DNA from: Candidatus Heimdallarchaeota archaeon
Lineage (GTDB): Archaea; Asgardarchaeota; Heimdallarchaeia; Heimdallarchaeales; Heimdallarchaeaceae
Direction of reading: 5' to 3'
NCBI GenBank assembly: GCA_030603365.1
Contig: JAUVXV010000009.1
Span: 80,568-144,567, forward strand
Length of the DNA: 64,000 nucleotides
Position 1 is the stretch's first letter; each line of letters opens with the position of its first letter. The notes under the pieces were generated by a model. The model ran no database searches. It saw only the letters and a program-made list of their open reading frames with translations, and was not told the DNA's origin. This document shows positions 41,531 to 54,930 of this stretch, in pieces. The position numbers and the translations under genes were made by a program.

Positions 41531-41968
41531 TTAGTATTGGATGTAGCTACTCTTAATAGATTGAACAGGTCCTCCACATTCAGGACATTCTCTTTCTCCA
41601 TAAATTACTTCATATCCACAGTACTCACAAAATCTAGCTTTCTTAGCACCTGAAGGTTTGTAGCCTGGAGCATAAGGACCAATTTTAGATATTTTCATGC
41701 TTTTAAGAGAAGAGAATATGGTTTTTCTTTTGCGTGTAAACATAATTACTACTGTGGGCATAAAAATAAATGGAATAAATCCTGCTACACCATATAGCAT
41801 ATAAATTCCTATCCACATCCGATCTATATTTGTAGAAGGATCATCTCCAAAAACACTAGAGAAAATCAGCACTATTGCTGTAACAATTGTTCCTAAGAAT
41901 AATAATCCCTCAATAATGAGAATATACTTAAAAGCACCTATCCCCTTTTTCTTTGTCTCAGTACTCAT
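41531..41968 (-). CDS. 2-TM membrane protein with C-terminal zinc ribbon
   Basis: CEYCG..ECPECGGP. Confidence 0.75.
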   Translation of the reverse strand: MSTETKKKGIGAFKYILIIEGLLFLGTIVTAIVLIFSSVFGDDPSTNIDRMWIGIYMLYGVAGFIPFIFMPTVVIMFTRKRKTIFSSLKSMKISKIGPYAPGYKPSGAKKARFCEYCGYEVIYGERECPECGGPVQSIKSSYIQY

Positions 41969-42174
41969 CTTGTTATTTTTTGCAATTAGATTAATAAAGT
42001 TTGAGATTAAAATAACCGAATTACTGCTATAAACACCAGTACTGCTAAAAATTGCAGTACTTCTATAATTTATTGATTTACTCGACGATAACTTTTTTCC
42101 TCTTTTATTAAATTTACAGGCTTTCTGTTTGAATATGAAGTTCTAATAGTTCCAACAACCAAAGAATGAGTTTT

Positions 42175-42609
42175 CTATTTTTCCTTTATTGGTCCTCCAC
42201 ATTCGGGACATTCACCAACTAGTGTTTCTGTGCCATATCCACAGTAAGAACAATAATAGACCTTCTTTTTTGAACCTGCATCTTCTGGGTAATTCTTAGT
42301 TGTATATGGTGAATCTGCAGCACTAATTGTAGAAGAATATCCTGAAGAAGCTTGTTTCCTGGATTTTGTAACAGAGATGACCATACCAATCATCATGAAA
42401 GCCATTGTAGACCCAACAACTCCAAAGAATATTGACCCTCCAATTGAAGCTAAATCAAACCCCTCGATTCCTGAAACGATAGCTGCGATGAAGAAACCTA
42501 TCGCTGTCAAAAATCCTGCAATTTCTAAGGAGACAATTACTAAAACTAGTTTGTTTAGAGGTTTCTTTTTCTTCTTCGAAGGTTCGTTTTTCGACATATC
42601 CTGATTCAT
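42175..42609 (-). CDS. 2-TM membrane protein with C-terminal zinc ribbon (paralog)
   Basis: CSYCG..ECPECGGP. Confidence 0.75.
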   Translation of the reverse strand: MNQDMSKNEPSKKKKKPLNKLVLVIVSLEIAGFLTAIGFFIAAIVSGIEGFDLASIGGSIFFGVVGSTMAFMMIGMVISVTKSRKQASSGYSSTISAADSPYTTKNYPEDAGSKKKVYYCSYCGYGTETLVGECPECGGPIKEK

Positions 42610-42937: not shown

Positions 42938-43504
42938 ATGTCAGAAAAAAAAATTCTAATTTTTTATGGCACCAGGTATGGAGCAACAGAGGGAGTAGCA
43001 GGAAAGATGGCAGAATTAATAAGAGAAAAGGGAAGCCAAGCAGAAGTGTATAACCTAAAAGACCTACCAGATGATAGGATTCCTGATTTCTCCAACTATG
43101 ATGGTATCCTTATCGGATCAAGCATAAGAATTGGTCAATGGACTAGAGATGTTAAGAAGTTTATTGGAAACAAAGCTGAGGAATTAAATAAATTCAAAGG
43201 CAAAAAAGGGTTCTATGTCTGTTCGGGGTATGCTTCAAATCCAGATACCTACGAAAAAGTGAAAGTAGAATATACTACAGATGCATGCGAGAAATTAGGT
43301 GTTAAGAAACTAGACTTATTCGATGCTTTTGGAGGATTAATGGACTTTACGGATACATCTCGAATGGGATGGTTGGAGAAGAAAATCTTGAAAAAGGCTG
43401 CAAAACAAACAACTGGTGAAAGCGCAGAGGATGATAGTTATACTGATCTAAGAGATTGGGATCAGATTGAAAAATTCACTTTGGAATTTCTAGGAAAATT
43501 GTAA
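42938..43504 (+). CDS. Flavodoxin-domain protein (HemG/Flavodoxin_5-like)
   Basis: YGTRYGAT, IGSSI, AFGG, DLRDWDQI. Confidence 0.88.
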   Translation: MSEKKILIFYGTRYGATEGVAGKMAELIREKGSQAEVYNLKDLPDDRIPDFSNYDGILIGSSIRIGQWTRDVKKFIGNKAEELNKFKGKKGFYVCSGYASNPDTYEKVKVEYTTDACEKLGVKKLDLFDAFGGLMDFTDTSRMGWLEKKILKKAAKQTTGESAEDDSYTDLRDWDQIEKFTLEFLGKL

Positions 43505-43527: not shown

Positions 43528-43650
43528 TTAATAGAATACGAATTGACCATTGAAGTAGGTAATCTCTTTCTTTTCTACCTTTCTAACTTCAGGTTGATAT
43601 ACCCATTGTTCATCGTTTTCAATTTTTTTGTTTTTTGTTTTTTCAGCCAT
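43528..43650 (-). CDS. 40-aa microprotein, copy A (absent from the ORF track)
   Basis: MAEKTKNKKIENDEQWVYQPEVRKVEKKEITYFNGQFVFY*; AGGTG RBS; paralog at 52319..52441. Confidence 0.75.
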   Translation of the reverse strand: MAEKTKNKKIENDEQWVYQPEVRKVEKKEITYFNGQFVFY

Positions 43651-43880
43651 TTTTTGCACCTATGTTAACTATAACTGGTCACATGATAAGAAGCTGGTGA
43701 GCTAAAGTGACCAAAAAGTGACCACAAGAAAAAACTTGAAGGCGCTCTTTTCAGAGACTATCCCACAAGTTTACAAGGTTTTCTTCTGAATCAAGCAATA
43801 GAGAATTCATCAAAATCTGAACATGTTGAATTGTGTCCATTTTAAAAAACATACATTTTATGTTTTCCAATCTACTCTTG

Positions 43881-44510
43881 TTATTTTTGAACTATATATT
43901 CAAATGAGGATTCTCTGAAATATTCATTACGAACAAGTACCTCGATTTGTGTTTTTTCTTTGAATATTAATTTTGTACCTTCAAGCATTTGATCTGTTTC
44001 TTCCTCTGTAAAGAAAGAATGCACAGTTTCTTCTCCGTGCTCCATATTCCAAAACTCTCCCTGATTCTTCTCTTCTCCCAATGATGGATGCACATTCTTA
44101 TACCAAAGAAAGTTTATACAAAGCAAACCTCCTTTCTTCAGCACTCTTAGCATTTCCTTTACAGCCTTTTTTGTATCTGCTTTTGTTAGATGGATACTTG
44201 AGTTATATGAGTAAACAAGGTCAAAAAATCTGCCATCAAAAGATAAGTCTCTCATGTCACCTTTTAACAATTTAAAATCCTGACCATATCTTGCTGCAAA
44301 ATCTTCTGCTTCCTCAAGTGCATTATCAGAAATATCTATTCCATATGCATCATACCCATGTTTGCAGAAAAGTGCTAAAGGAGGATTTTGACCTCCAGCT
44401 CCACAATCTAGAACCTTACCTTTTTCAGGTTTTTTCCACTTTGCTAAACGCAAAAATTTGTAAATTGTTGGACGAAATAATGTAAGACTAAAATCATTCT
44501 TTTCAGTCAT
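43881..44510 (-). CDS. Class I SAM-dependent methyltransferase
   Basis: VLDCGAG, GIDIS, GDMR, RVLKKGG. Confidence 0.9.
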   Translation of the reverse strand: MTEKNDFSLTLFRPTIYKFLRLAKWKKPEKGKVLDCGAGGQNPPLALFCKHGYDAYGIDISDNALEEAEDFAARYGQDFKLLKGDMRDLSFDGRFFDLVYSYNSSIHLTKADTKKAVKEMLRVLKKGGLLCINFLWYKNVHPSLGEEKNQGEFWNMEHGEETVHSFFTEEETDQMLEGTKLIFKEKTQIEVLVRNEYFRESSFEYIVQK

Positions 44511-44592
44511 AATAAATTCTTAGAAGATTACACATTTATAAAAATTCGGAAGAAAATTCTAGCTTGATTAACTCCTTCCTTCGAACGCGGTC

Positions 44593-44991
44593 TCAATGTT
44601 CTTTTTCAAAATCTAGAGTTACAGAATTTATACAAAATCTTAATCCTGTAGGTTTAGGTCCATCATCAAAAATGTGTCCTAGATGCCCTCCACAATTCTT
44701 ACAAAGAACTTCAGTTCTGATCATATCATGACTTGTATCTATTTCTTCCTCGATATTTCCTTCTTCAAGAGGTTCAAAAAAGCTTGGCCAACCACAACCA
44801 GAGTCAAACTTAGTGTCTGATTCGAAGAGTGGAGTTCCACATCCAGCACATTTGTAAGTTCCCTTTTCTTTATGATCCCAAAATTCACCAGTAAATGGTC
44901 TTTCTGTTCCTTTCAAACGCAGAACAAAAAATTGTTCTTTGGACAATTTGTCTTTCCATTCTTTCTCTGATTTCTTTACAGATTCATTCAT
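44593..44991 (-). CDS. msrB: Peptide-methionine (R)-S-oxide reductase (start revised to 44991)
   Basis: GTERPF, CAGC, SGCGWPSF, CKNCGGHLGHIFDDGP, RFCINS. Confidence 0.95.
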   Translation of the reverse strand: MNESVKKSEKEWKDKLSKEQFFVLRLKGTERPFTGEFWDHKEKGTYKCAGCGTPLFESDTKFDSGCGWPSFFEPLEEGNIEEEIDTSHDMIRTEVLCKNCGGHLGHIFDDGPKPTGLRFCINSVTLDFEKEH

Positions 44992-45046
44992 CAATATGAT
45001 ATCTTCTTCGAAACAATTAAAACTAATGCTCCTACAAGAAATATTA

Positions 45047-45601
45047 ATGAGTTCAGAAGAACCAGAACAAACTGAATCTTTTGGTGAATTTACTAGCAAT
45101 CTCTTAATTGCTCTAGATACCTTGGAATTGGCTCCGGATAGTCTTTGGACAATCATAAGACCAACTTTGTATTTTAGTATACCTGGTTTAATAGGAACAA
45201 TACTTGGTTACTGGCTTATGGTTAAAGATGAAGGTACAATCTGGGAATATTTACTCTTAGCATTTAGCGTCTTCTTCTTAGCAACTGGTATTATGTTTGT
45301 AATTGTTGGATTAACTCAACTTTCTTCTAACAGGAGGAGATACACATTTACCAAAGCTGGTCTTACAATAAAACCGTTGTTTGATGAAAAACGATTTATC
45401 TCTTGGGAAGAAATGAGTTCTCTTGAAATTGAGGGAAAAGATCAAAGCATAAGAAAGAAAAAGAAGTGTGTTATCAAAATTGAAGAAGAAGAAATTGTAA
45501 TTAACATTAGAGGTTTATATGAACCATCATCTAAATCAAGAAACCATGATAATATTCTTGAAGCAATTGAGAAATATTATCAAAGGATGAAAAAGAAGTG
45601 A
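45047..45601 (+). CDS. 2-TM membrane protein with PH-like soluble domain
   Basis: Two TMs followed by YTFT..GL.I..ISWEE; start revised to avoid overlap with msrB. Confidence 0.6.
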   Translation: MSSEEPEQTESFGEFTSNLLIALDTLELAPDSLWTIIRPTLYFSIPGLIGTILGYWLMVKDEGTIWEYLLLAFSVFFLATGIMFVIVGLTQLSSNRRRYTFTKAGLTIKPLFDEKRFISWEEMSSLEIEGKDQSIRKKKKCVIKIEEEEIVINIRGLYEPSSKSRNHDNILEAIEKYYQRMKKK

Positions 45602-45608
45602 ATTCTGA

Positions 45609-46058
45609 CTAGTTTTCAAGTTCTTCATTCGATTTCTTATTACTTCTTTTTAATGCAAACACAAATGCTATTATGAATATTATAAAGAGAAGAATTCTAA
45701 TTGATTGGAAAATAGCAAATTGTGTGACCGTTTGATTCGAATACCCTTGTAGGAATAACACTAATTCTCCAGTAAATAGTCCTAAAACAACAGGAAATGC
45801 AGTAAAAAATAATATCAATCTTCTCTCGATAGGTTTTCTGTCACCCCAAATTAATAGTATTGTCCATCCCCACATCAATGCCATTCCAGCACTGAGCATA
45901 AACCTTAACTCATTTGTAGGTTCTGGGTAGTCCATTCCTATATTCACTTGGAAGAAAACATATAGTGTCATTGAAAGGGCTACAAGAAAATCCATCAAAG
46001 CACCTAACCAGTAAGCAAAACGGATAAAGATTAAATCTAGTTGCATTTGCTTTTTCAT
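45609..46058 (-). CDS. Hypothetical 4-TM membrane protein
   Basis: ALMWGWT..W.DRKPIERR. Confidence 0.7.
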   Translation of the reverse strand: MKKQMQLDLIFIRFAYWLGALMDFLVALSMTLYVFFQVNIGMDYPEPTNELRFMLSAGMALMWGWTILLIWGDRKPIERRLILFFTAFPVVLGLFTGELVLFLQGYSNQTVTQFAIFQSIRILLFIIFIIAFVFALKRSNKKSNEELEN

Positions 46059-46155
46059 TTCTATTCATCCATTATTTTTGTTAATGAATCAAACCGAGTT
46101 AATAATTGTTATGCAATTCAATATCCTTAGCTTAATGTTTTAAAATTAGAATGAG

Positions 46156-47379
46156 ATGTTTTTAGCGAATACAATGACAGAATTCATTCTCAATACAAAT
46201 GATTTTGAATCTATTTTAGTGAACAAAGCTCAAGGTTCATGGATTTGGGATGTTAAGGGGAAGAAATATTTGGATTGCACATCAGGAGTATGGTGCTTGC
46301 TTATAGGTCATAACCATCCTAAATTGATTAAAACTATAAAATCTCAAATAGATAATCTAATCCATACAAATAACAGATTTTTGTCACCAATAACATTAGA
46401 AGCTGCTGAAAGAGTATTAAACTTCATCCCTGGAAATTTTGATAAAATTACATTTCTAAATAGTGGTAGTGAAGCAGTTGAGTTTTCGATTAATTTAGCA
46501 AAGAAAATAACAGGTAGAGTAGATGTACTTTCTTTGAAAGATTCATATTATGGTTCTTATGGGACCTCCAAATCATTATCTTACACTTCTGGTAAAGAAT
46601 CTAAGATGAAATTGCAATATAGAAAATGTAATTCTGAAGAATGTAATTGTATAGAAGATTTAATTCCAATTCTTGATGAACTATTACTAGCTGAATCCAT
46701 CCAACCAGCTTGTTTTGTACTTGAGCCAATCATGGTAAGCGGTGGTATTCACAAACCCTGCAAAAAGTATGTTGAAGAGGTTTGTAATAGAATAAAAAAT
46801 GCTGGTGGATTAATAATTTCGAATGAGGTAACTACAGGATTAGGAAGGTCAGGAAAACCTTTCGGATTTCAACATTATAATATTACTCCTGATATAATCG
46901 TTTTGGGTAAGGGATTAGGAGCAGGTTATCCAGTAAGTGCGATTATCACTAGATCAGAACTAGCATCAAAAATACCAGCTGAACAGAAATATTATGCTCA
47001 ATCGCATCAGCTAGATCCTCTAGGATCTGCAATTGCTAATACAGTTGTTAGAATAATTGAAGAGGATGAAATAATCGAAAGGAGTCAAGAAATTATTAGT
47101 ATTCTTGAAGAATTCTTTGGTAATCTAAGACATCCTTCCATTAAAGAAATCAGACAATATGGTATGATCATCGGTATCCAAATCCAACCTTATTCTAGCA
47201 AAAATAGTTCTCAACTAATACTTGAAATCAAGAATAGATTGTTGGAGGAAGGTATTATGATCGGACTGAGTCTTGGAAAAGATTTGTTAAGACTTTTACC
47301 ACCACTAAATATGTCTGTAGAAGAAGTGGACTTCCTTAAACGGAAATTAACTAAGGTTTTTGATAATCTATCCCCTTAA
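46156..47379 (+). CDS. Class III PLP-dependent aminotransferase
   Basis: GKKYLD, GHNHP, SGSEAVE, EP, NEVTTGLGRSG, GKGLGAG. Confidence 0.9.
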   Translation: MFLANTMTEFILNTNDFESILVNKAQGSWIWDVKGKKYLDCTSGVWCLLIGHNHPKLIKTIKSQIDNLIHTNNRFLSPITLEAAERVLNFIPGNFDKITFLNSGSEAVEFSINLAKKITGRVDVLSLKDSYYGSYGTSKSLSYTSGKESKMKLQYRKCNSEECNCIEDLIPILDELLLAESIQPACFVLEPIMVSGGIHKPCKKYVEEVCNRIKNAGGLIISNEVTTGLGRSGKPFGFQHYNITPDIIVLGKGLGAGYPVSAIITRSELASKIPAEQKYYAQSHQLDPLGSAIANTVVRIIEEDEIIERSQEIISILEEFFGNLRHPSIKEIRQYGMIIGIQIQPYSSKNSSQLILEIKNRLLEEGIMIGLSLGKDLLRLLPPLNMSVEEVDFLKRKLTKVFDNLSP

Positions 47380-47572
47380 GATGTTCAATGTTAATCTTTT
47401 CACTTCATAGATTTTCAAATATATTACTTAGTCTAATCTTTTATTTAGTGCAGGATTTGTCGAAAGACTAAAAACGTGTCTAGAGCACTTTTAATATCAT
47501 TTATTTACATATAATATTTTTTCGTTGTAAGCGGTACTTTATCAGTATCTCATTTAGCATACAATTGATGCT

Positions 47573-49150
47573 ATGTCAGAATCTACTAGTACTTACGATG
47601 TGATTATCGTGGGTTCAGGAGTCGGTGGTTTAACCGCTGGAGTTACTTTGCAAACATTGAAACCTGAAATGAAAACACTAATATTAGAACAGCATTATGC
47701 TCCTGGTGGTTATATTAGTGGATTTAGACGTAAAGGATACTATTTTGATTCTGGCGCAGAAGGATTAGTTTTTTGTGGGGAAGGACAGAATTTTAGAAGG
47801 GCTATCGAAGGTTTAGGAGTTAATTTAAAATTTCTTAATATAGATCCTGTAGAAGAATTGCACTATTCAGATAAGACTGTAACAATGCATCAAGATGCTG
47901 AAAAGTATGTAAAAGAACTAATCCAAAAGTATCCTGATAACAAAGATGAAATTGAGAAATTATTCTCTGTTCTAAGGAAGATAAATAGTGAGTACCACTC
48001 TAATGTAAAAACAGGATTAGATCCAACTTTCAAAGAACTGCTGAAGATTAGTTTTACCTGCCCAACCATGCGTAAATATGTATTTATGTCATTCAAGGAT
48101 TTTATTGATAGATTCATTACTAATGAGCAATTGAAGAAAGTTCTTTCGGTCTATTGTCTATGGTTAGGTGTTCCATCTGAATCCATAAGGGCAGTGGCAG
48201 CAGGATTAATATTCTTCTCACCAGTTTTCGATGGACATTACTATCCAAAAGGAGGAATGTTTGCATTTGCAAAGAGTCTTGCAGATTCTTTCGTTAACAA
48301 AGGAGGAGAGATTGAGTATAAGAAGAAAGTCACTAGAATCCTGACTAAGAAAAGAAAAGCAGTAGGCGTAGAACTAGCAGATGGGACTAAAATTAGAAGT
48401 AAATGGATTATTTCTAATGCTGATCTGAAGAGAACTGTTTTCGAGTATGTGGGTATGAACAAATTTCCTAATAGCTATTTAGTCAAGGTTGCTAAAAAGA
48501 ACCAATCAGTATCAGGTTTTTCTGTTTTTCTAGGACTGGATAAAGAACTCACAGGTTACCCATCGCATATGGCATATAATCTGGACGCAGATAGGAATAT
48601 CAAAGAAATTCTGGGAGGAAAGTATGATCCCAAAGAAGTGATGATAAGAATTCCTTCAAAAATTGATCCCGATCTTTCAAATAATGGTAAATCCTCTGTT
48701 ATTCTTTTATCATTTGCTCCCTATGATTGGGAAAATAAATGGAATAGTTCTCACAAAGAATCATACAAAGAAACAAAAGAAAAGTATGCAGATAAGCTAA
48801 TCAAGTTAGCAGAAAATGTTATTCCTGAATTATCTAAACATATTGAAGTTAAGTTGATCTCAACTCCTTTAACTTTCGAACGATATTCCTTGAATACACA
48901 AGGTGCATGGTATGGTCCAAGAGAAGGATCACTTAAAATTGGAAAGAAAACTCCAATAAGAAAACTAGTTTTAGCTGGAGCAAATACAGCAGGTGCAGGA
49001 GTTCCACCAAGTTTCTTTTCAGGTATAAAAACAGCAAAGCATATCATAAATAGATTCGGTGCAGGAAAGAGAACCTTGAGAGTAATGTTCCCTGTTATCA
49101 GTCATTTGTCATTCAAAGCAAGAAACAGAGCTATATTGAGTATAGCTTGA
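47573..49150 (+). CDS. FAD-dependent oxidoreductase, phytoene desaturase / retinol reductase family
   Basis: GSGVGG, PGGY..F.RKGY.FD, YPKGG, STPLTFERY. Confidence 0.85.
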   Translation: MSESTSTYDVIIVGSGVGGLTAGVTLQTLKPEMKTLILEQHYAPGGYISGFRRKGYYFDSGAEGLVFCGEGQNFRRAIEGLGVNLKFLNIDPVEELHYSDKTVTMHQDAEKYVKELIQKYPDNKDEIEKLFSVLRKINSEYHSNVKTGLDPTFKELLKISFTCPTMRKYVFMSFKDFIDRFITNEQLKKVLSVYCLWLGVPSESIRAVAAGLIFFSPVFDGHYYPKGGMFAFAKSLADSFVNKGGEIEYKKKVTRILTKKRKAVGVELADGTKIRSKWIISNADLKRTVFEYVGMNKFPNSYLVKVAKKNQSVSGFSVFLGLDKELTGYPSHMAYNLDADRNIKEILGGKYDPKEVMIRIPSKIDPDLSNNGKSSVILLSFAPYDWENKWNSSHKESYKETKEKYADKLIKLAENVIPELSKHIEVKLISTPLTFERYSLNTQGAWYGPREGSLKIGKKTPIRKLVLAGANTAGAGVPPSFFSGIKTAKHIINRFGAGKRTLRVMFPVISHLSFKARNRAILSIA

Positions 49151-49165
49151 TTTTTTAACCTTCAA

Positions 49166-49321
49166 TCAATCTTTTAAGAGAACAGAGAAGATAAATTATA
49201 GAAGTAAAAGTAATTTAGCAGAATTCATTGCATAGCATCTGAATGGGCAATAGAAAGTCTGTTTGGTACTCCAGTGAGTATTAACTTATGGTTTTCCACA
49301 AACAACGCACTTGCCAACCAT
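49166..49321 (-). pseudogene. Decayed zinc-finger + TM gene
   Basis: MVGKCVVCGKP*VNTHWSTKQTFYCPFRCYAMNSAKLLLLL*FIFSVLLKD*, with two in-frame TAA stops. Confidence 0.45.
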
Positions 49322-49397
49322 TGTATTCAGACACATGTAAATCTTCTACTTTTTAAAAGAATTAGAATAAAAAAGAAAAAAGTGGGTAAGAAACAGT

Positions 49398-51167
49398 TTA
49401 TTGTTTCTTTTTCTTTCGATAAAAGCGGATTGTGCTACTTACAGCGAGAAAGCCAAGTAGAATGAAGTAACCTGATGAAAACTCTGGTACTACTATTATA
49501 TCATATCCTGCTGCTTCCATATAGCTTAATGCTATGTCTAAATTGTACTCATATGGAAGTAGAGAATCATCAAAACCTATACATCCACGAGGGATTGAAG
49601 TAATGCCTTCTTCACCTAACCCTAAAAGGATATTATCAATTATATCTTGTCGAGGTGTAGCATGGCTAATAGCTTTTCTCACGTATTTAGCTGCTTCAGC
49701 TGTCCCTACAGGTGTTAATTCACCTGTTCCTAGAATAGGATGACGCATATTAATGGCCATCCCTTGTTCAGCAAACCCGTCTACTTTAATTCCTTCAATT
49801 CCTGCAATACCCTCGAAATCAGACAGAACTGGAAAATATTGAGCATCCATAATATCGATTGTGCCATTAATTAAAGATTCTAAAGCGCCTACTTTACCTG
49901 AAATAAAAATCTCGTTCCATTCGTCTAATACAACTGTAGTCCCATGCCAGTATGGATTTGGTAAAAGCTGTACAGTACTGAGGACAGGATTGAACTCGTT
50001 GAGTATCATTGGACCACATGATTTCACTAATGAATCTAAAACATTTCCTGTTAAAGGTAATTCATAGAAAATATCATAACCATAAGTAGCAATTTTTGCT
50101 TCAACATCGCTCTTATCAATAATCCCATGAGATAGTAAGCTTAGAGGGAAGTTGTAGGGTTCAGGTAGTATAAAACTTAGAGTGCTAGAGCTATGTTCTA
50201 TGATTGAATCATGGTTACCAAACCATTTGGTTAAGTATCCATATGAAGGTGAACCAACTTCTGGAGTCATGTATAACTCATAAGAATACTTAACATCCTC
50301 TGCTAAAACTGCATCACCATTGCTAAATTTAGCATTAGGATCAATAGTTACGGTCAAGTTTGTCCCTCCAGCAGTTATAATACAATCTGTTGCTATATTA
50401 GGCTCCCACATTAGATCTATAGGGTTTCGACTGAATAATGAACCATATACATTTTGCATCCATATCCTATCAAAATAACTCTCTAGAGTGAAGATATTTT
50501 GATCTTGCAAATCTACTGGGACTGCATGTGTGATAATGCGGTCGACCGGGTCATACCAGTTTTCTATACGCTGATTAGCCGTAGAGACTAGAAGAGGGTT
50601 GATCCCAATTAAGCCAGTTTTGAATCCATAAAGATCACTTGGATGAACTATGCATATTGCAGGCAAACCCTCATAAAGAATAGATTGAAGTAGGTGTGCG
50701 TATTGTGTCCGGAGAACAGGATTATATTCTTCCTCATAATTTTCAAGAATTGCATCATATATAGGATTATTATATTGATAAAAATTATCTCCATATGGAA
50801 CTATTGCAGCTGTCTCAAATATCCCACTTAGTTGTAAATCAAAAGGCCAATGCCAACCTAAAAAGAGTATGTCATATCCTCCTTCATCATATGTTGGAAT
50901 ATAATCATACTCGATTAAAGGATAGTACCATGTTCGTGGGGATATATTAGCCCATCCAGTAGATTCATGAAAAGATACACTAATACCTATTTCTGGCAAC
51001 TGTTGTTCCATTAGTAATGCCCATTGATCACGAGCAGGGCTTGTATTTGGTGAGAGCAAAGCAATAGAGAATAACTCTGGTATCGCTGCTTGTGGTGTAT
51101 TTTGAATAATAACAAGAGATGAAACAAATAAACTAACAAAAGTAATCAAAACGATTTTTCTTTTCAA
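49398..51167 (-). CDS. Family 5 (peptide/nickel) ABC substrate-binding protein with PEF-CTERM-like tail
   Basis: AKFSNG..AEDVKYS, CGP, NPYW, VRKAISHA, PYEYN; ends VPEF + TM + RKKKK. Confidence 0.88.
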   Translation of the reverse strand: MKRKIVLITFVSLFVSSLVIIQNTPQAAIPELFSIALLSPNTSPARDQWALLMEQQLPEIGISVSFHESTGWANISPRTWYYPLIEYDYIPTYDEGGYDILFLGWHWPFDLQLSGIFETAAIVPYGDNFYQYNNPIYDAILENYEEEYNPVLRTQYAHLLQSILYEGLPAICIVHPSDLYGFKTGLIGINPLLVSTANQRIENWYDPVDRIITHAVPVDLQDQNIFTLESYFDRIWMQNVYGSLFSRNPIDLMWEPNIATDCIITAGGTNLTVTIDPNAKFSNGDAVLAEDVKYSYELYMTPEVGSPSYGYLTKWFGNHDSIIEHSSSTLSFILPEPYNFPLSLLSHGIIDKSDVEAKIATYGYDIFYELPLTGNVLDSLVKSCGPMILNEFNPVLSTVQLLPNPYWHGTTVVLDEWNEIFISGKVGALESLINGTIDIMDAQYFPVLSDFEGIAGIEGIKVDGFAEQGMAINMRHPILGTGELTPVGTAEAAKYVRKAISHATPRQDIIDNILLGLGEEGITSIPRGCIGFDDSLLPYEYNLDIALSYMEAAGYDIIVVPEFSSGYFILLGFLAVSSTIRFYRKKKKQ

Positions 51168-51750
51168 TTTTAAACCTCCATAAGTTAACCAAATTTTCTT
51201 TTCTCACTTGTTTATTTAAACATTGTGCGAGAAAAGAAAGGAAAAAAGAAGAAGAGATTTGTTAAGGTTTCTTGAGGTTCTTAACTAGTAACAAATTGCT
51301 GATTTGAAAAAGAGGATTATATCAATAAATACTGATAGTCACCAGATCATTTTTTATGGTGCTTTATATGATAGAGAAAGAGAGATTACTGAAAGTAGAT
51401 GTCATCTGTAAGGTTCAAAGAGGAAATGACTGAGATTAATTCTGGCACCAGTAAGTCTTATTAGTAAGAAATCTATGCATATGAATTGAATGCCAACTGA
51501 AGAAAATTTTGAAGAAATTTGAAGCGGTTGATAAAAACTTCTTGTAAATTCATTATCTTCACTTAATGTTTATATTTTCTAGTATAAGGGTTTTTTCTGA
51601 AATGTGTGCGAAAAAATGAACATACAAAACTGCATTAAAACCATCCAAAACCATGAATTTCACTGTTTTCGTCTTTTTTGTTGAAGGAATATGCTTATCA
51701 TTTGTTCATGAGAATTTATGAACAATCTGAATGAACTTGGAGGTTATGGT

Positions 51751-52260
51751 GTGGCAAAAAATACTGTTATTGTGTATGAGACGTACTACGGAGCAACAAA
51801 ACAAGCTGCTTTCAAAATAGCTCGAATATTAGAAGATGAATTCAATCATGAAGTTACTGTACACAATATCGGAAAAGATCGTGAATGTCCAGACTTAAGC
51901 ACTTGTGATAATATAATCATAGGTAGTTGTATCTATAATGGTACTTGGGCATGTCATGTAGAAAACTTTCTCAGCAATACGTTTGACGGAAAGAAAACAG
52001 CTCTTTTCGTATGTTCAATGTTTGCTGGAGAAAAATCACTCTATAAGCAAGCTTACCAATCGTACCTGGTTAACAAACTTGAGAAGTATGATAATTTTCA
52101 ACCAGTATCAATGGAAGCTTTTGGTGGAAGAGTTCCTGATAAGGAATTTCCAGATGAATGGGTAGAGCAAGTTGCCAAAAAACTACCAACCTTTACTACA
52201 AATAATAAGGACTTAACCAGAGTTGAAAAATGGGCAAAAGAACTAGGAAAATTACTCTAA
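51751..52260 (+). CDS. Flavodoxin-domain protein (paralog of 42938)
   Basis: YETYYGAT, IGSCI, AFGG; GTG start after GGAGG. Confidence 0.82.
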   Translation: MAKNTVIVYETYYGATKQAAFKIARILEDEFNHEVTVHNIGKDRECPDLSTCDNIIIGSCIYNGTWACHVENFLSNTFDGKKTALFVCSMFAGEKSLYKQAYQSYLVNKLEKYDNFQPVSMEAFGGRVPDKEFPDEWVEQVAKKLPTFTTNNKDLTRVEKWAKELGKLL

Positions 52261-52318
52261 AATTGAGCAATAAAGATAAGCAATAATAGGAGTAATAATT
52301 GGGGATTGAAAAGAAAGA

Positions 52319-52441
52319 TTAGAAGGTAAATGCTTGTCCGAAGACATAAGCAACGTTTATCTTTTCAATTCTTTTATTTTCGTGTTGATAAACCCATTTG
52401 TTTTGGTTTTCAGTTTTTGTTTGTTTAACTTTTTGAGCCAT
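52319..52441 (-). CDS. 40-aa microprotein, copy B (absent from the ORF track)
   Basis: MAQKVKQTKTENQNKWVYQHENKRIEKINVAYVFGQAFTF*; AGGTG RBS; 17/40 identical to copy A. Confidence 0.75.
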   Translation of the reverse strand: MAQKVKQTKTENQNKWVYQHENKRIEKINVAYVFGQAFTF

Positions 52442-52575
52442 TTTTTGCACCTATCCTAACATAGCTCCCTATTTAAAAATAACTTGCTCACATGATGTGA
52501 ACACAAGTTGTGACATAAGAGTGAAAAAAAACACAAATTTCAGATAAACCTTAAATATTCAAAAACTGAGGAAGT

Positions 52576-54519: not shown

Positions 54520-54930
54520 ATGCATAGTAATAATTATAGACATAAAAACCCAGTTGGAGGATTTTTTATATTCATGCTAACTTTGTTAGGTGCATTAATC
54601 TTAGTTGGGTTTATTACAGGATTCTTGAGGCACGTGATTTGGCCAATTCCTATGGTGGGAACATTATTAGTTATCTTATTTGTAGCAAGTATTATTTCTT
54701 CATCTAGAAGAAGAACAAGACATAGACACGCTCAAAGACAACAATACAGAAGGTATGAAACCTACAAACCTACAGAAAATCCCTTCTGGAAGAATCAAGA
54801 GAACCAAGTAGTTCAAGAACAAGAACCAGTTCAAAGAGTTGTTAATTCAACTAAGTTTTGTGACTACTGTGGAATGAAAGTTAAGGAAGAAATGAGTTTT
54901 TGTACAAACTGTGGTAATAGACTAAAATAG
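54520..54930 (+). CDS. 2-TM membrane protein with C-terminal zinc ribbon
   Basis: CDYCG..FCTNCG. Confidence 0.75.
   Translation: MHSNNYRHKNPVGGFFIFMLTLLGALILVGFITGFLRHVIWPIPMVGTLLVILFVASIISSSRRRTRHRHAQRQQYRRYETYKPTENPFWKNQENQVVQEQEPVQRVVNSTKFCDYCGMKVKEEMSFCTNCGNRLK

Follow-up and report, generated by a model that had tools for sequence, protein, structure and literature searches.

A microprotein family apparently confined to two genera of Heimdallarchaeaceae and its probable origin upstream of hyuA

Are two 40-codon open reading frames (ORFs) that adjoin flavodoxin genes in an Asgard archaeal genome real genes, and do the flavodoxins tell what these genes do? The question is raised by a 64,000-nt stretch of contig JAUVXV010000009.1 from Candidatus Heimdallarchaeota archaeon (assembly GCA_030603365.1), referred to here as the window and numbered from its first nucleotide. 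Copy A (43528..43650, minus strand) starts with ATG and, like copy B (52319..52441, minus strand), consists of 40 codons plus a stop. They are convergent with the Flavodoxin_5 genes Fld1 (42938..43504, plus strand; Pfam E 3.7e-21) and Fld2 (51718..52260, plus strand; Pfam E 1.3e-17), respectively, whose products share 32% identity. A first-pass annotation had described the length of both ORFs, their similarity, a common 19-nt start context and the tail-to-tail arrangement, all of which is correct in every detail. The explanation that best joins the evidence presented here, and which is judged somewhat probable as a whole, is that both ORFs belong to a coding orphan family with an ancestral linkage to the gene hyuA, that they are part of a regulon defined by GTCAC operators, and that their products would act in trans as binding modulators.

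The two predicted proteins are identical at 17 of 40 positions without gaps, and at 19 of 40 with a single gap in BLASTP (E 5e-11), a similarity far beyond chance. The 3.65-Mb assembly contains the 19-mer ATAGGTGCAAAAAATGGCT exactly twice, at the starts of copies A and B, and its reversed control nowhere. For the comparison with relatives, the window's own genome was labeled G000 and the other genomes of its genus G0xx, and the copies were sorted into subfamilies A to H, with copies A and B in the stand-alone subfamilies of the same letters. The search of related genomes for homologues, proposed with the first description, was productive: tblastn and a profile (E<=0.01) recovered open frames of 39-45 aa, free of internal stops, in 26 of the 47 genomes of the order. 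All 41 profile hits are open at this length, as are five G-type copies and two further complete H-type copies, and each of the 25 genomes of the genus holds one to three copies when those found by context are included. The frame of copy A is open in all related genomes with a homologue, and the orthologues of copy B in G016, G020 and G023 are 77-80% identical to it. The selection acting on both peptides is purifying, with a ratio of nonsynonymous to synonymous differences (pN/pS) of 0.19-0.43 in the sense frame of six subfamilies (0.43 in A and 0.29 in B); the remaining frames show values of ~1 or are full of stops.

Translation signals have been conserved as well. A GGTG Shine-Dalgarno (SD) sequence, which matches the archaeal anti-SD, is located 6 nt 5' of a conserved ATG (TTG in a few copies), at 43657..43660 for copy A and at 52448..52451 for copy B, both on the minus strand. 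The start context (A/T)TAGGTG(C/A)AAAAA-ATG is kept across subfamilies A, B, C and F, and every copy has a short SD-led leader. The family therefore combines a conserved small ORF, purifying selection and translation signals, which are the marks of archaeal small proteins (µ-proteins). Copies A and B are very probably protein-coding genes of one microprotein family, and the initial argument for translation, based on conserved length, ribosome-binding site and residues, has been borne out by paralogous genes under purifying selection in which length, start codon and SD are all conserved.

An opposing view takes the region as a conserved promoter, a 5' cassette or a small RNA, in which the open frame is fortuitous and no functional protein is made. 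Conservation is indeed stronger in the ~85 nt upstream than within the ORFs, unrelated ORFs as well as a fusion are driven by this cassette, and the sequence is AT-rich and of low complexity. However, more than 45 divergent copies have kept the frame open, for which chance gives ~0.045 per copy at this GC content, the sense-frame pN/pS stays below 0.45, and both the length and the motifs W.Y and NG[QH] are conserved. The search of Rfam returned nothing relevant, its only match being a sub-threshold snoRNA-like one at 45522-45564, and a scan for sigma-70 promoters and terminators is not informative for an archaeon. A fortuitous frame is thus quite improbable. On the strand opposite to both genes, hydrophobic ORFs of 41 codons are found in antisense (43543..43668 and 52334..52459, plus strand), which are not conserved because stop codons interrupt them in about half of the homologues.

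Neither window protein belongs to a Pfam family (E<=0.01), and a search with all 39 members gave scattered single-member matches (best E 0.003), none of them common to more than two. A profile search of the PDB yielded 0 matches at E<=10, Foldseek against the PDB another 0, and the ESM Atlas no usable match. Homologous clusters amount to 22 among 5.8e9 proteins and to 19 representatives among 1.84e9, all of 37-42 aa and with no fused form among them; where database names are given, they read only 'hypothetical protein, Candidatus Heimdallarchaeaceae archaeon'. Within the order, profile matches are confined to the genus and its sister genus, with none in the 11 other genera. Judged by these searches, the microproteins form an orphan family restricted to one genus of Heimdallarchaeaceae and the sister genus of it. 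Two AlphaFold2 (AF2) runs gave the same picture: residues 2-27 form a long helix, after which comes a β-hairpin (30-33/36-39) with an Asn-Gly turn. The most conserved block comprises the C-terminal 12 residues (F/Y-x-N-G-Q/H-x-x-x-aromatic), the N-terminus differs between subfamilies, and no Cys is conserved in the 40-aa protein. The predicted shape would accordingly consist of one long amphipathic helix plus a C-terminal NG-turn β-hairpin, which is unlikely to be stable alone.

The gene context of the family was surveyed in the 6-kb flanks of 41 copies, in which the neighboring genes were clustered. Copies of subfamilies C, D, E and G are located on the same strand as, and directly 5' of, hyuA, which is followed by hyuB and by a gene for an enoyl-CoA hydratase (ECH). 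A hyuA-linked copy is present in 20 of the 25 genomes of the genus, including that of the window, where it represents a third copy (G000:C14:129897-130016). The products of hyuA (a Hydantoinase_A protein of 691 aa) and hyuB (526 aa) have as their closest structures an N-methylhydantoinase (7HK5) and a caprolactamase (6YRA), and by this homology the local HyuAB is assigned to the lactamase class (ATP-dependent N-methylhydantoinase/5-oxoprolinase/caprolactamase). The micro-ORF and hyuA are separated in the sister genus by a gene for an isochorismatase-family hydrolase (L077:6140-6703, L078:1406-1969), a gene set reminiscent of the route from N-methylhydantoin to N-carbamoylsarcosine. A gene for a DtxR-family regulator lies 3' of hyuA-hyuB-ECH in 12 loci.

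A maximum-likelihood tree groups 23 stand-alone copies in a single clade (support 99/98) beside the hyuA-linked C type, with subfamily B as a clade inside it (100/100). From this topology, the window pair is concluded to descend from an old duplication in a lineage that left the hyuA locus once; the hyuA-linked copy is taken as the ancestral gene, and one old duplication gave the diversifying stand-alone lineage that includes copies A and B. Upstream of hyuA outside the two carrier genera, either a tRNA gene or unrelated sequence is found. The hyuA-linked copy is absent in five genomes of the genus, all of which retain stand-alone copies and show remnants of the lost one. In G012 (L088, G012:C88) only the last seven codons have been kept, NGQMVFR and the stop; in G021 (L093, G021:C95) a clean deletion has fused CTGGTCAC to TAAACTTTAAATT, joining a GGTCAC repeat to the hyuA TATA box; and in G004 (L100, G004:C8) a TnpB-like fragment replaces the micro-ORF. 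The stand-alone copies have had a further fate in G020 (L161:1076-1747, G020:C38), in which a type-1 promoter (described below) and the first ~28 A-type codons have become joined, in frame, to a 224-aa alpha/beta-hydrolase.

Regulatory leader peptides of the TnaC and ErmCL type are short conserved ORFs located immediately 5' of an operon. The position of the hyuA-linked copies would fit such a cis-acting leader peptide or upstream ORF, the translation of which controls the downstream hyuA operon by attenuation or reinitiation: 20 of 25 genomes have the ORF 5' of hyuA and on its strand, the spacer has a constant 40 nt in subfamilies D, E and G, and it carries differing palindromes in D and E. 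This spacer begins with the invariant TAA-ACTTTAAATT, with the stop codon of the micro-ORF abutting a TATA-like box of hyuA, and hyuA itself (L067, L082; G000:C14:130057 onwards) has an apparent TTG start with no SD, 27 nt 3' of the TTTAAATT box. Such a start could also speak for control by the leader; nevertheless, because of that distance and of the start lacking an SD, the box is read as hyuA's own TATA, which suggests a near-leaderless hyuA transcript. In the five genomes that deleted the ORF, TAAACTTTAAATT and hyuA were kept, and the spacer of subfamily G has T-runs, not a hairpin. Moreover, neither the window copies nor 22 other stand-alone copies are followed by a co-directional gene, yet they are under purifying selection; both window copies have convergent genes 3', and the upstream placement is exclusive to the hyuA-linked paralogues. 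Unlike TnaC or ErmCL, then, most members of the family precede no gene that they could lead, and hyuA keeps a promoter box of its own, all of which makes a leader peptide highly improbable.

The flavodoxins can be weighed against the same survey. In the module proposed by the first-pass annotation, the microprotein would work with the flavodoxin located tail to tail with it, the pair having been duplicated as one unit. Both window copies and both G016 copies do adjoin paralogous Flavodoxin_5 genes, and in seven further genomes the Fld1 orthologue is convergent with the A copy and on the same contig, at 4-10 kb, with variable genes in between. However, a flavodoxin adjoins only 5 of the 24 stand-alone copies (subfamilies A and B), in 3 of the 25 genomes, which are G000, G016 and G020, that is, the window genome and its closest relatives; Fld1 adjoins a micro-ORF in these three and Fld2 only in G000 and G016. 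No flavodoxin is found next to any of the at least 20 hyuA-linked copies, which are older, and the remaining stand-alone copies adjoin a PEMT/ICMT-like methyltransferase gene, an FAD amine-oxidase-like gene, genes for membrane proteins and others. Fld1 orthologues occur in ~18 genomes, in some of them on a different contig from the A copy and in others, such as G018 and G001, without any A or B copy; besides, convergent genes have no common transcript. The proximity of Fld1 to the A copy is ordinary genus-level synteny of a plastic island, and the flavodoxin neighbors of both window copies are incidental and lineage-specific. The module is therefore unsupported and a functional pair extremely unlikely; the linkage that is conserved and ancestral is not to Flavodoxin_5 but to hyuA-hyuB-ECH.

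How the family is controlled can be approached from its conserved upstream region. Copy A is preceded by a type-1 operator/promoter (43675..43724, minus strand) composed of two TGGTCAC repeats (43718-43724 and 43707-43713), a CTCACCAG box (43694-43701), an AT-rich TATA-like stretch (43684-43693) and an inverted GTGACCAG (43675-43682). The general architecture, conserved in subfamilies A, C and F, is TGGTCAC-N4-TGGTCAC, a T-run, a CTCA box, an AT-rich 8-mer, GTGACCAG, ~15 nt, AGGTG, N6 and ATG. Copy B is preceded by a type-2 operator, GTCACAACTTGTGTTCAC (52497..52514, minus strand), an imperfect GTCAC-N5-GTGAC palindrome, and by TTATTTTTAAATA (52470..52482, minus strand), a putative TATA-like box present in all type-2 promoters; the order is GTCAC-AACTT-GTG(AC/TT)C, then TTTTTAAA, then AGGTG. 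Type-2 and E-type promoters share the element GTCAC-N5-GTG(AC/TT)C, and those of subfamily D have no operator; overall, conserved promoters with GTCAC half-site operators precede most copies. The strict type-1 form GGTCAC-N24-GTGACCA gives 66 strand matches (~33 sites) in 19 of the 25 genomes of the genus, with 5 in the control, and the type-2 element 31 matches, also in 19 of 25, with 1 in the control. Exact GTCAC-N5-GTGAC palindromes are absent from the window's own genome, and the regulon becomes visible only with the real architectures.

Micro-ORF promoters account for ~15 of the 33 type-1 sites, the largest single class. The same element also precedes genes for a major facilitator superfamily (MFS) transporter of the MFS_1/MFS_3 type (G000:C12:63842), for a 114-aa protein (G000:C11:125983; 112-128 aa among its operator-preceded relatives, without a Pfam match), for PmbA/TldD and for GNAT proteins, as well as further micro-ORF subfamilies. 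The type-2 operator is in addition found 5' of a second micro-ORF family of 32-34 aa (consensus M.KK.K...KI.K..KKER..AL....IL.KGSL), with 17 copies across the genus in a AGGTGCAAAAAATG context, including one in the window's own genome (G000:C17:34219, region G000:C17:34146-34320, locus L182:547-724); it is often followed by a gene for a YdjM-like membrane protein. Homology between the 40-aa and the 33-aa families was rejected (hhalign probability 1%). As the same operators precede several other genes, the microproteins are regarded as members of a genus-specific regulon. Before the MFS gene, the type-1 operator is overlapped by a 40-codon ORF starting with MKIISKPRKTRTERIEYWSFGGH (G000:C12:63720-63842, L154), which is probably fortuitous, because this frame does not stay open in the promoters of the micro-ORFs.

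Two other interpretations of the upstream element were discarded. It is not an RNA structure, since there is no compensation: the 4 nt beside GTGACCAG vary freely and the CTCA box shows no matching change, the center of the type-2 palindrome is 1 nt, and the element recurs before unrelated genes. Neither is it a second coding frame, which stops break in most copies. The closest known parallel is the 'TGM' operator of TrmBL1/Tgr in Thermococcales, TATCAC-N5-GTGATA (PMC4158304). As in TGM, type-2 and E-type promoters have a TCAC-N5-GTGA core inverted repeat around the BRE/TATA region (B recognition element and TATA box); they differ in organism and regulon content, and the type-1 sites are further set apart by an additional direct repeat and by a spacing of N24 across the TATA region. 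The GTCAC operators thus resemble the TrmBL1/TGM motif, and binding of a transcription factor is predicted.

Could the microprotein itself be that factor, a minimal DNA-binding autoregulator that recognizes the GTCAC operators? Its own promoters form the largest class of operator sites, and subfamilies C and G have a very basic helix at the N-terminus. Subfamily A proteins, however, are nearly neutral, there is no likeness to any DNA-binding fold, and the operator is missing from subfamily D promoters; such a role is very unlikely.

In the explanation favored here, the microprotein would instead work in trans, binding to a larger protein as its small partner or modulator, in a mode comparable to that of sP26 and MtrR in archaea or of MntS in bacteria. 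Trans action is inferred because selection acts on stand-alone copies, which have been retained in the genomes that lost the hyuA-linked one. The ancestral target may have been the HyuAB enzyme or another product of the regulon. Several observations weigh against this explanation. The characterized enzymes of the lactamase class (7HK5, 6YRA) have no small subunit, and no indel of HyuA tracks the presence of the microprotein, with which one fixed substitution is found. The synteny with hyuA within one genus may be simply inherited. The AF2 models are of moderate confidence only (pLDDT, the predicted local distance difference test, of 64 and 76). As for the regulon, the genome contains 13 TrmB-domain matches, of which 10 exceed the family cut-off, and three full TrmB-family proteins are encoded; none adjoins a target, for which reason a TrmB-type factor stays a prediction; no transcription factor gene is adjacent to the MFS or 114-aa loci either. 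Finally, HyuAB orthologues occur in 47 of the 47 genomes of the order and the microprotein in two genera only, with HyuAB present without it in the 11 other genera, so that it cannot be an essential HyuAB subunit. HyuAB would then be a candidate historical target, not a required partner. A literature search for Heimdallarchaeia together with hydantoinase found no report.

The first-pass annotation had also considered a precursor peptide, an idea that received no direct support. In its developed form, the microprotein would be a secreted or modified precursor similar to ribosomally synthesized and post-translationally modified peptides (RiPPs), with HyuAB and/or PmbA/TldD as maturation enzymes and the MFS transporter of the regulon as exporter. 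In its favor are several dispersed paralogues with a common promoter, the presence of an MFS_3-type transporter and a PmbA/TldD peptidase in the regulon, and the conserved Asn-Gly near the C-terminus. Nevertheless, the conservation is the reverse of a leader/core pattern, the C-terminal hairpin and not an N-terminal leader being best conserved; no YcaO, radical-SAM or lanthipeptide-type enzyme, nor any other canonical RiPP enzyme, is encoded within 3 kb, and no protease or transporter gene is adjacent. To our knowledge, HyuAB-type enzymes are not peptide modifiers. This precursor role has little probability, as has the wider proposal of an Asgard peptide system in which at least two unrelated micro-ORF families stand under one GTCAC operator, HyuAB and/or PmbA/TldD act on the peptides and the MFS protein handles them. 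If true, it would represent a RiPP-like or signaling-peptide pathway using a hydantoinase-type enzyme, previously unseen.

A trans-acting modulator has parallels among characterized small proteins. In archaea, Methanosarcina mazei sP26, of 23 aa, binds glutamine synthetase (bioRxiv 10.1101/2020.05.06.080432), and MtrR is an enzyme-modulating small protein (PMC13370731). The microproteins share with them a stand-alone regulated gene, a size of <=50 aa, the lack of enzymatic domains and the presumed binding of a larger protein; they show no sequence or fold relationship to either, and their family is multi-copy and confined to two Asgard genera. The 42-aa MntS of E. coli is repressed by MntR and modulates the exporter MntP (PMC4361602, bioRxiv 10.1101/2023.06.02.543501). 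Although there is no homology, it is likewise a soluble microprotein of ~40 aa in a transcription-factor regulon with a transporter, and of young evolutionary origin. A link to metals by analogy with MntS would be pure speculation, its sole basis being the DtxR-like gene after the hyuAB-ECH operon. Gamma subunits of acetone and acetophenone carboxylases are zinc-binding and several times larger than 40 aa. They resemble the microprotein in being a small extra polypeptide encoded with HyuA/HyuB-type genes (PDB 5M45, 5SVB, 5L9W). An assignment of the microprotein as an Acetone_carb_G gamma subunit was rejected on account of its 40 aa, the lack of a Cys4 motif and of a Pfam match, and the lactamase class of the local HyuAB, in which no gamma subunit occurs.

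Asgard archaea are the closest prokaryotic relatives of eukaryotes, and their small proteins have hardly been explored. The window leads to a well-supported microprotein family that is lineage-restricted and the history of which can be traced (a probable origin 5' of hyuA, duplication, loss in five genomes and one fusion to a hydrolase), and a tempting guilt-by-association with flavodoxin has been corrected. It also provides a concrete, testable cis-regulatory code, the GTCAC operators around the TATA region, that would define a regulon in an uncultured genus, and a candidate new accessory factor for ATP-dependent lactamases.

Some features of the surrounding DNA deserve mention in their own right. 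The MsrB (SelR) gene (44593..45156, minus strand) has a 70-residue N-terminal extension that overlaps the predicted start of the ORF 44939..45601 (plus strand), which encodes 220 aa of unassigned function; the start of one or the other has probably been mis-set. The island around the micro-ORFs also encodes several paralogous small membrane proteins with C-terminal zinc ribbons (41531..42609, minus strand; 54520..54930, plus strand), which form clusters c3 and c10 and the gene order of which is shuffled among the genomes of the genus.

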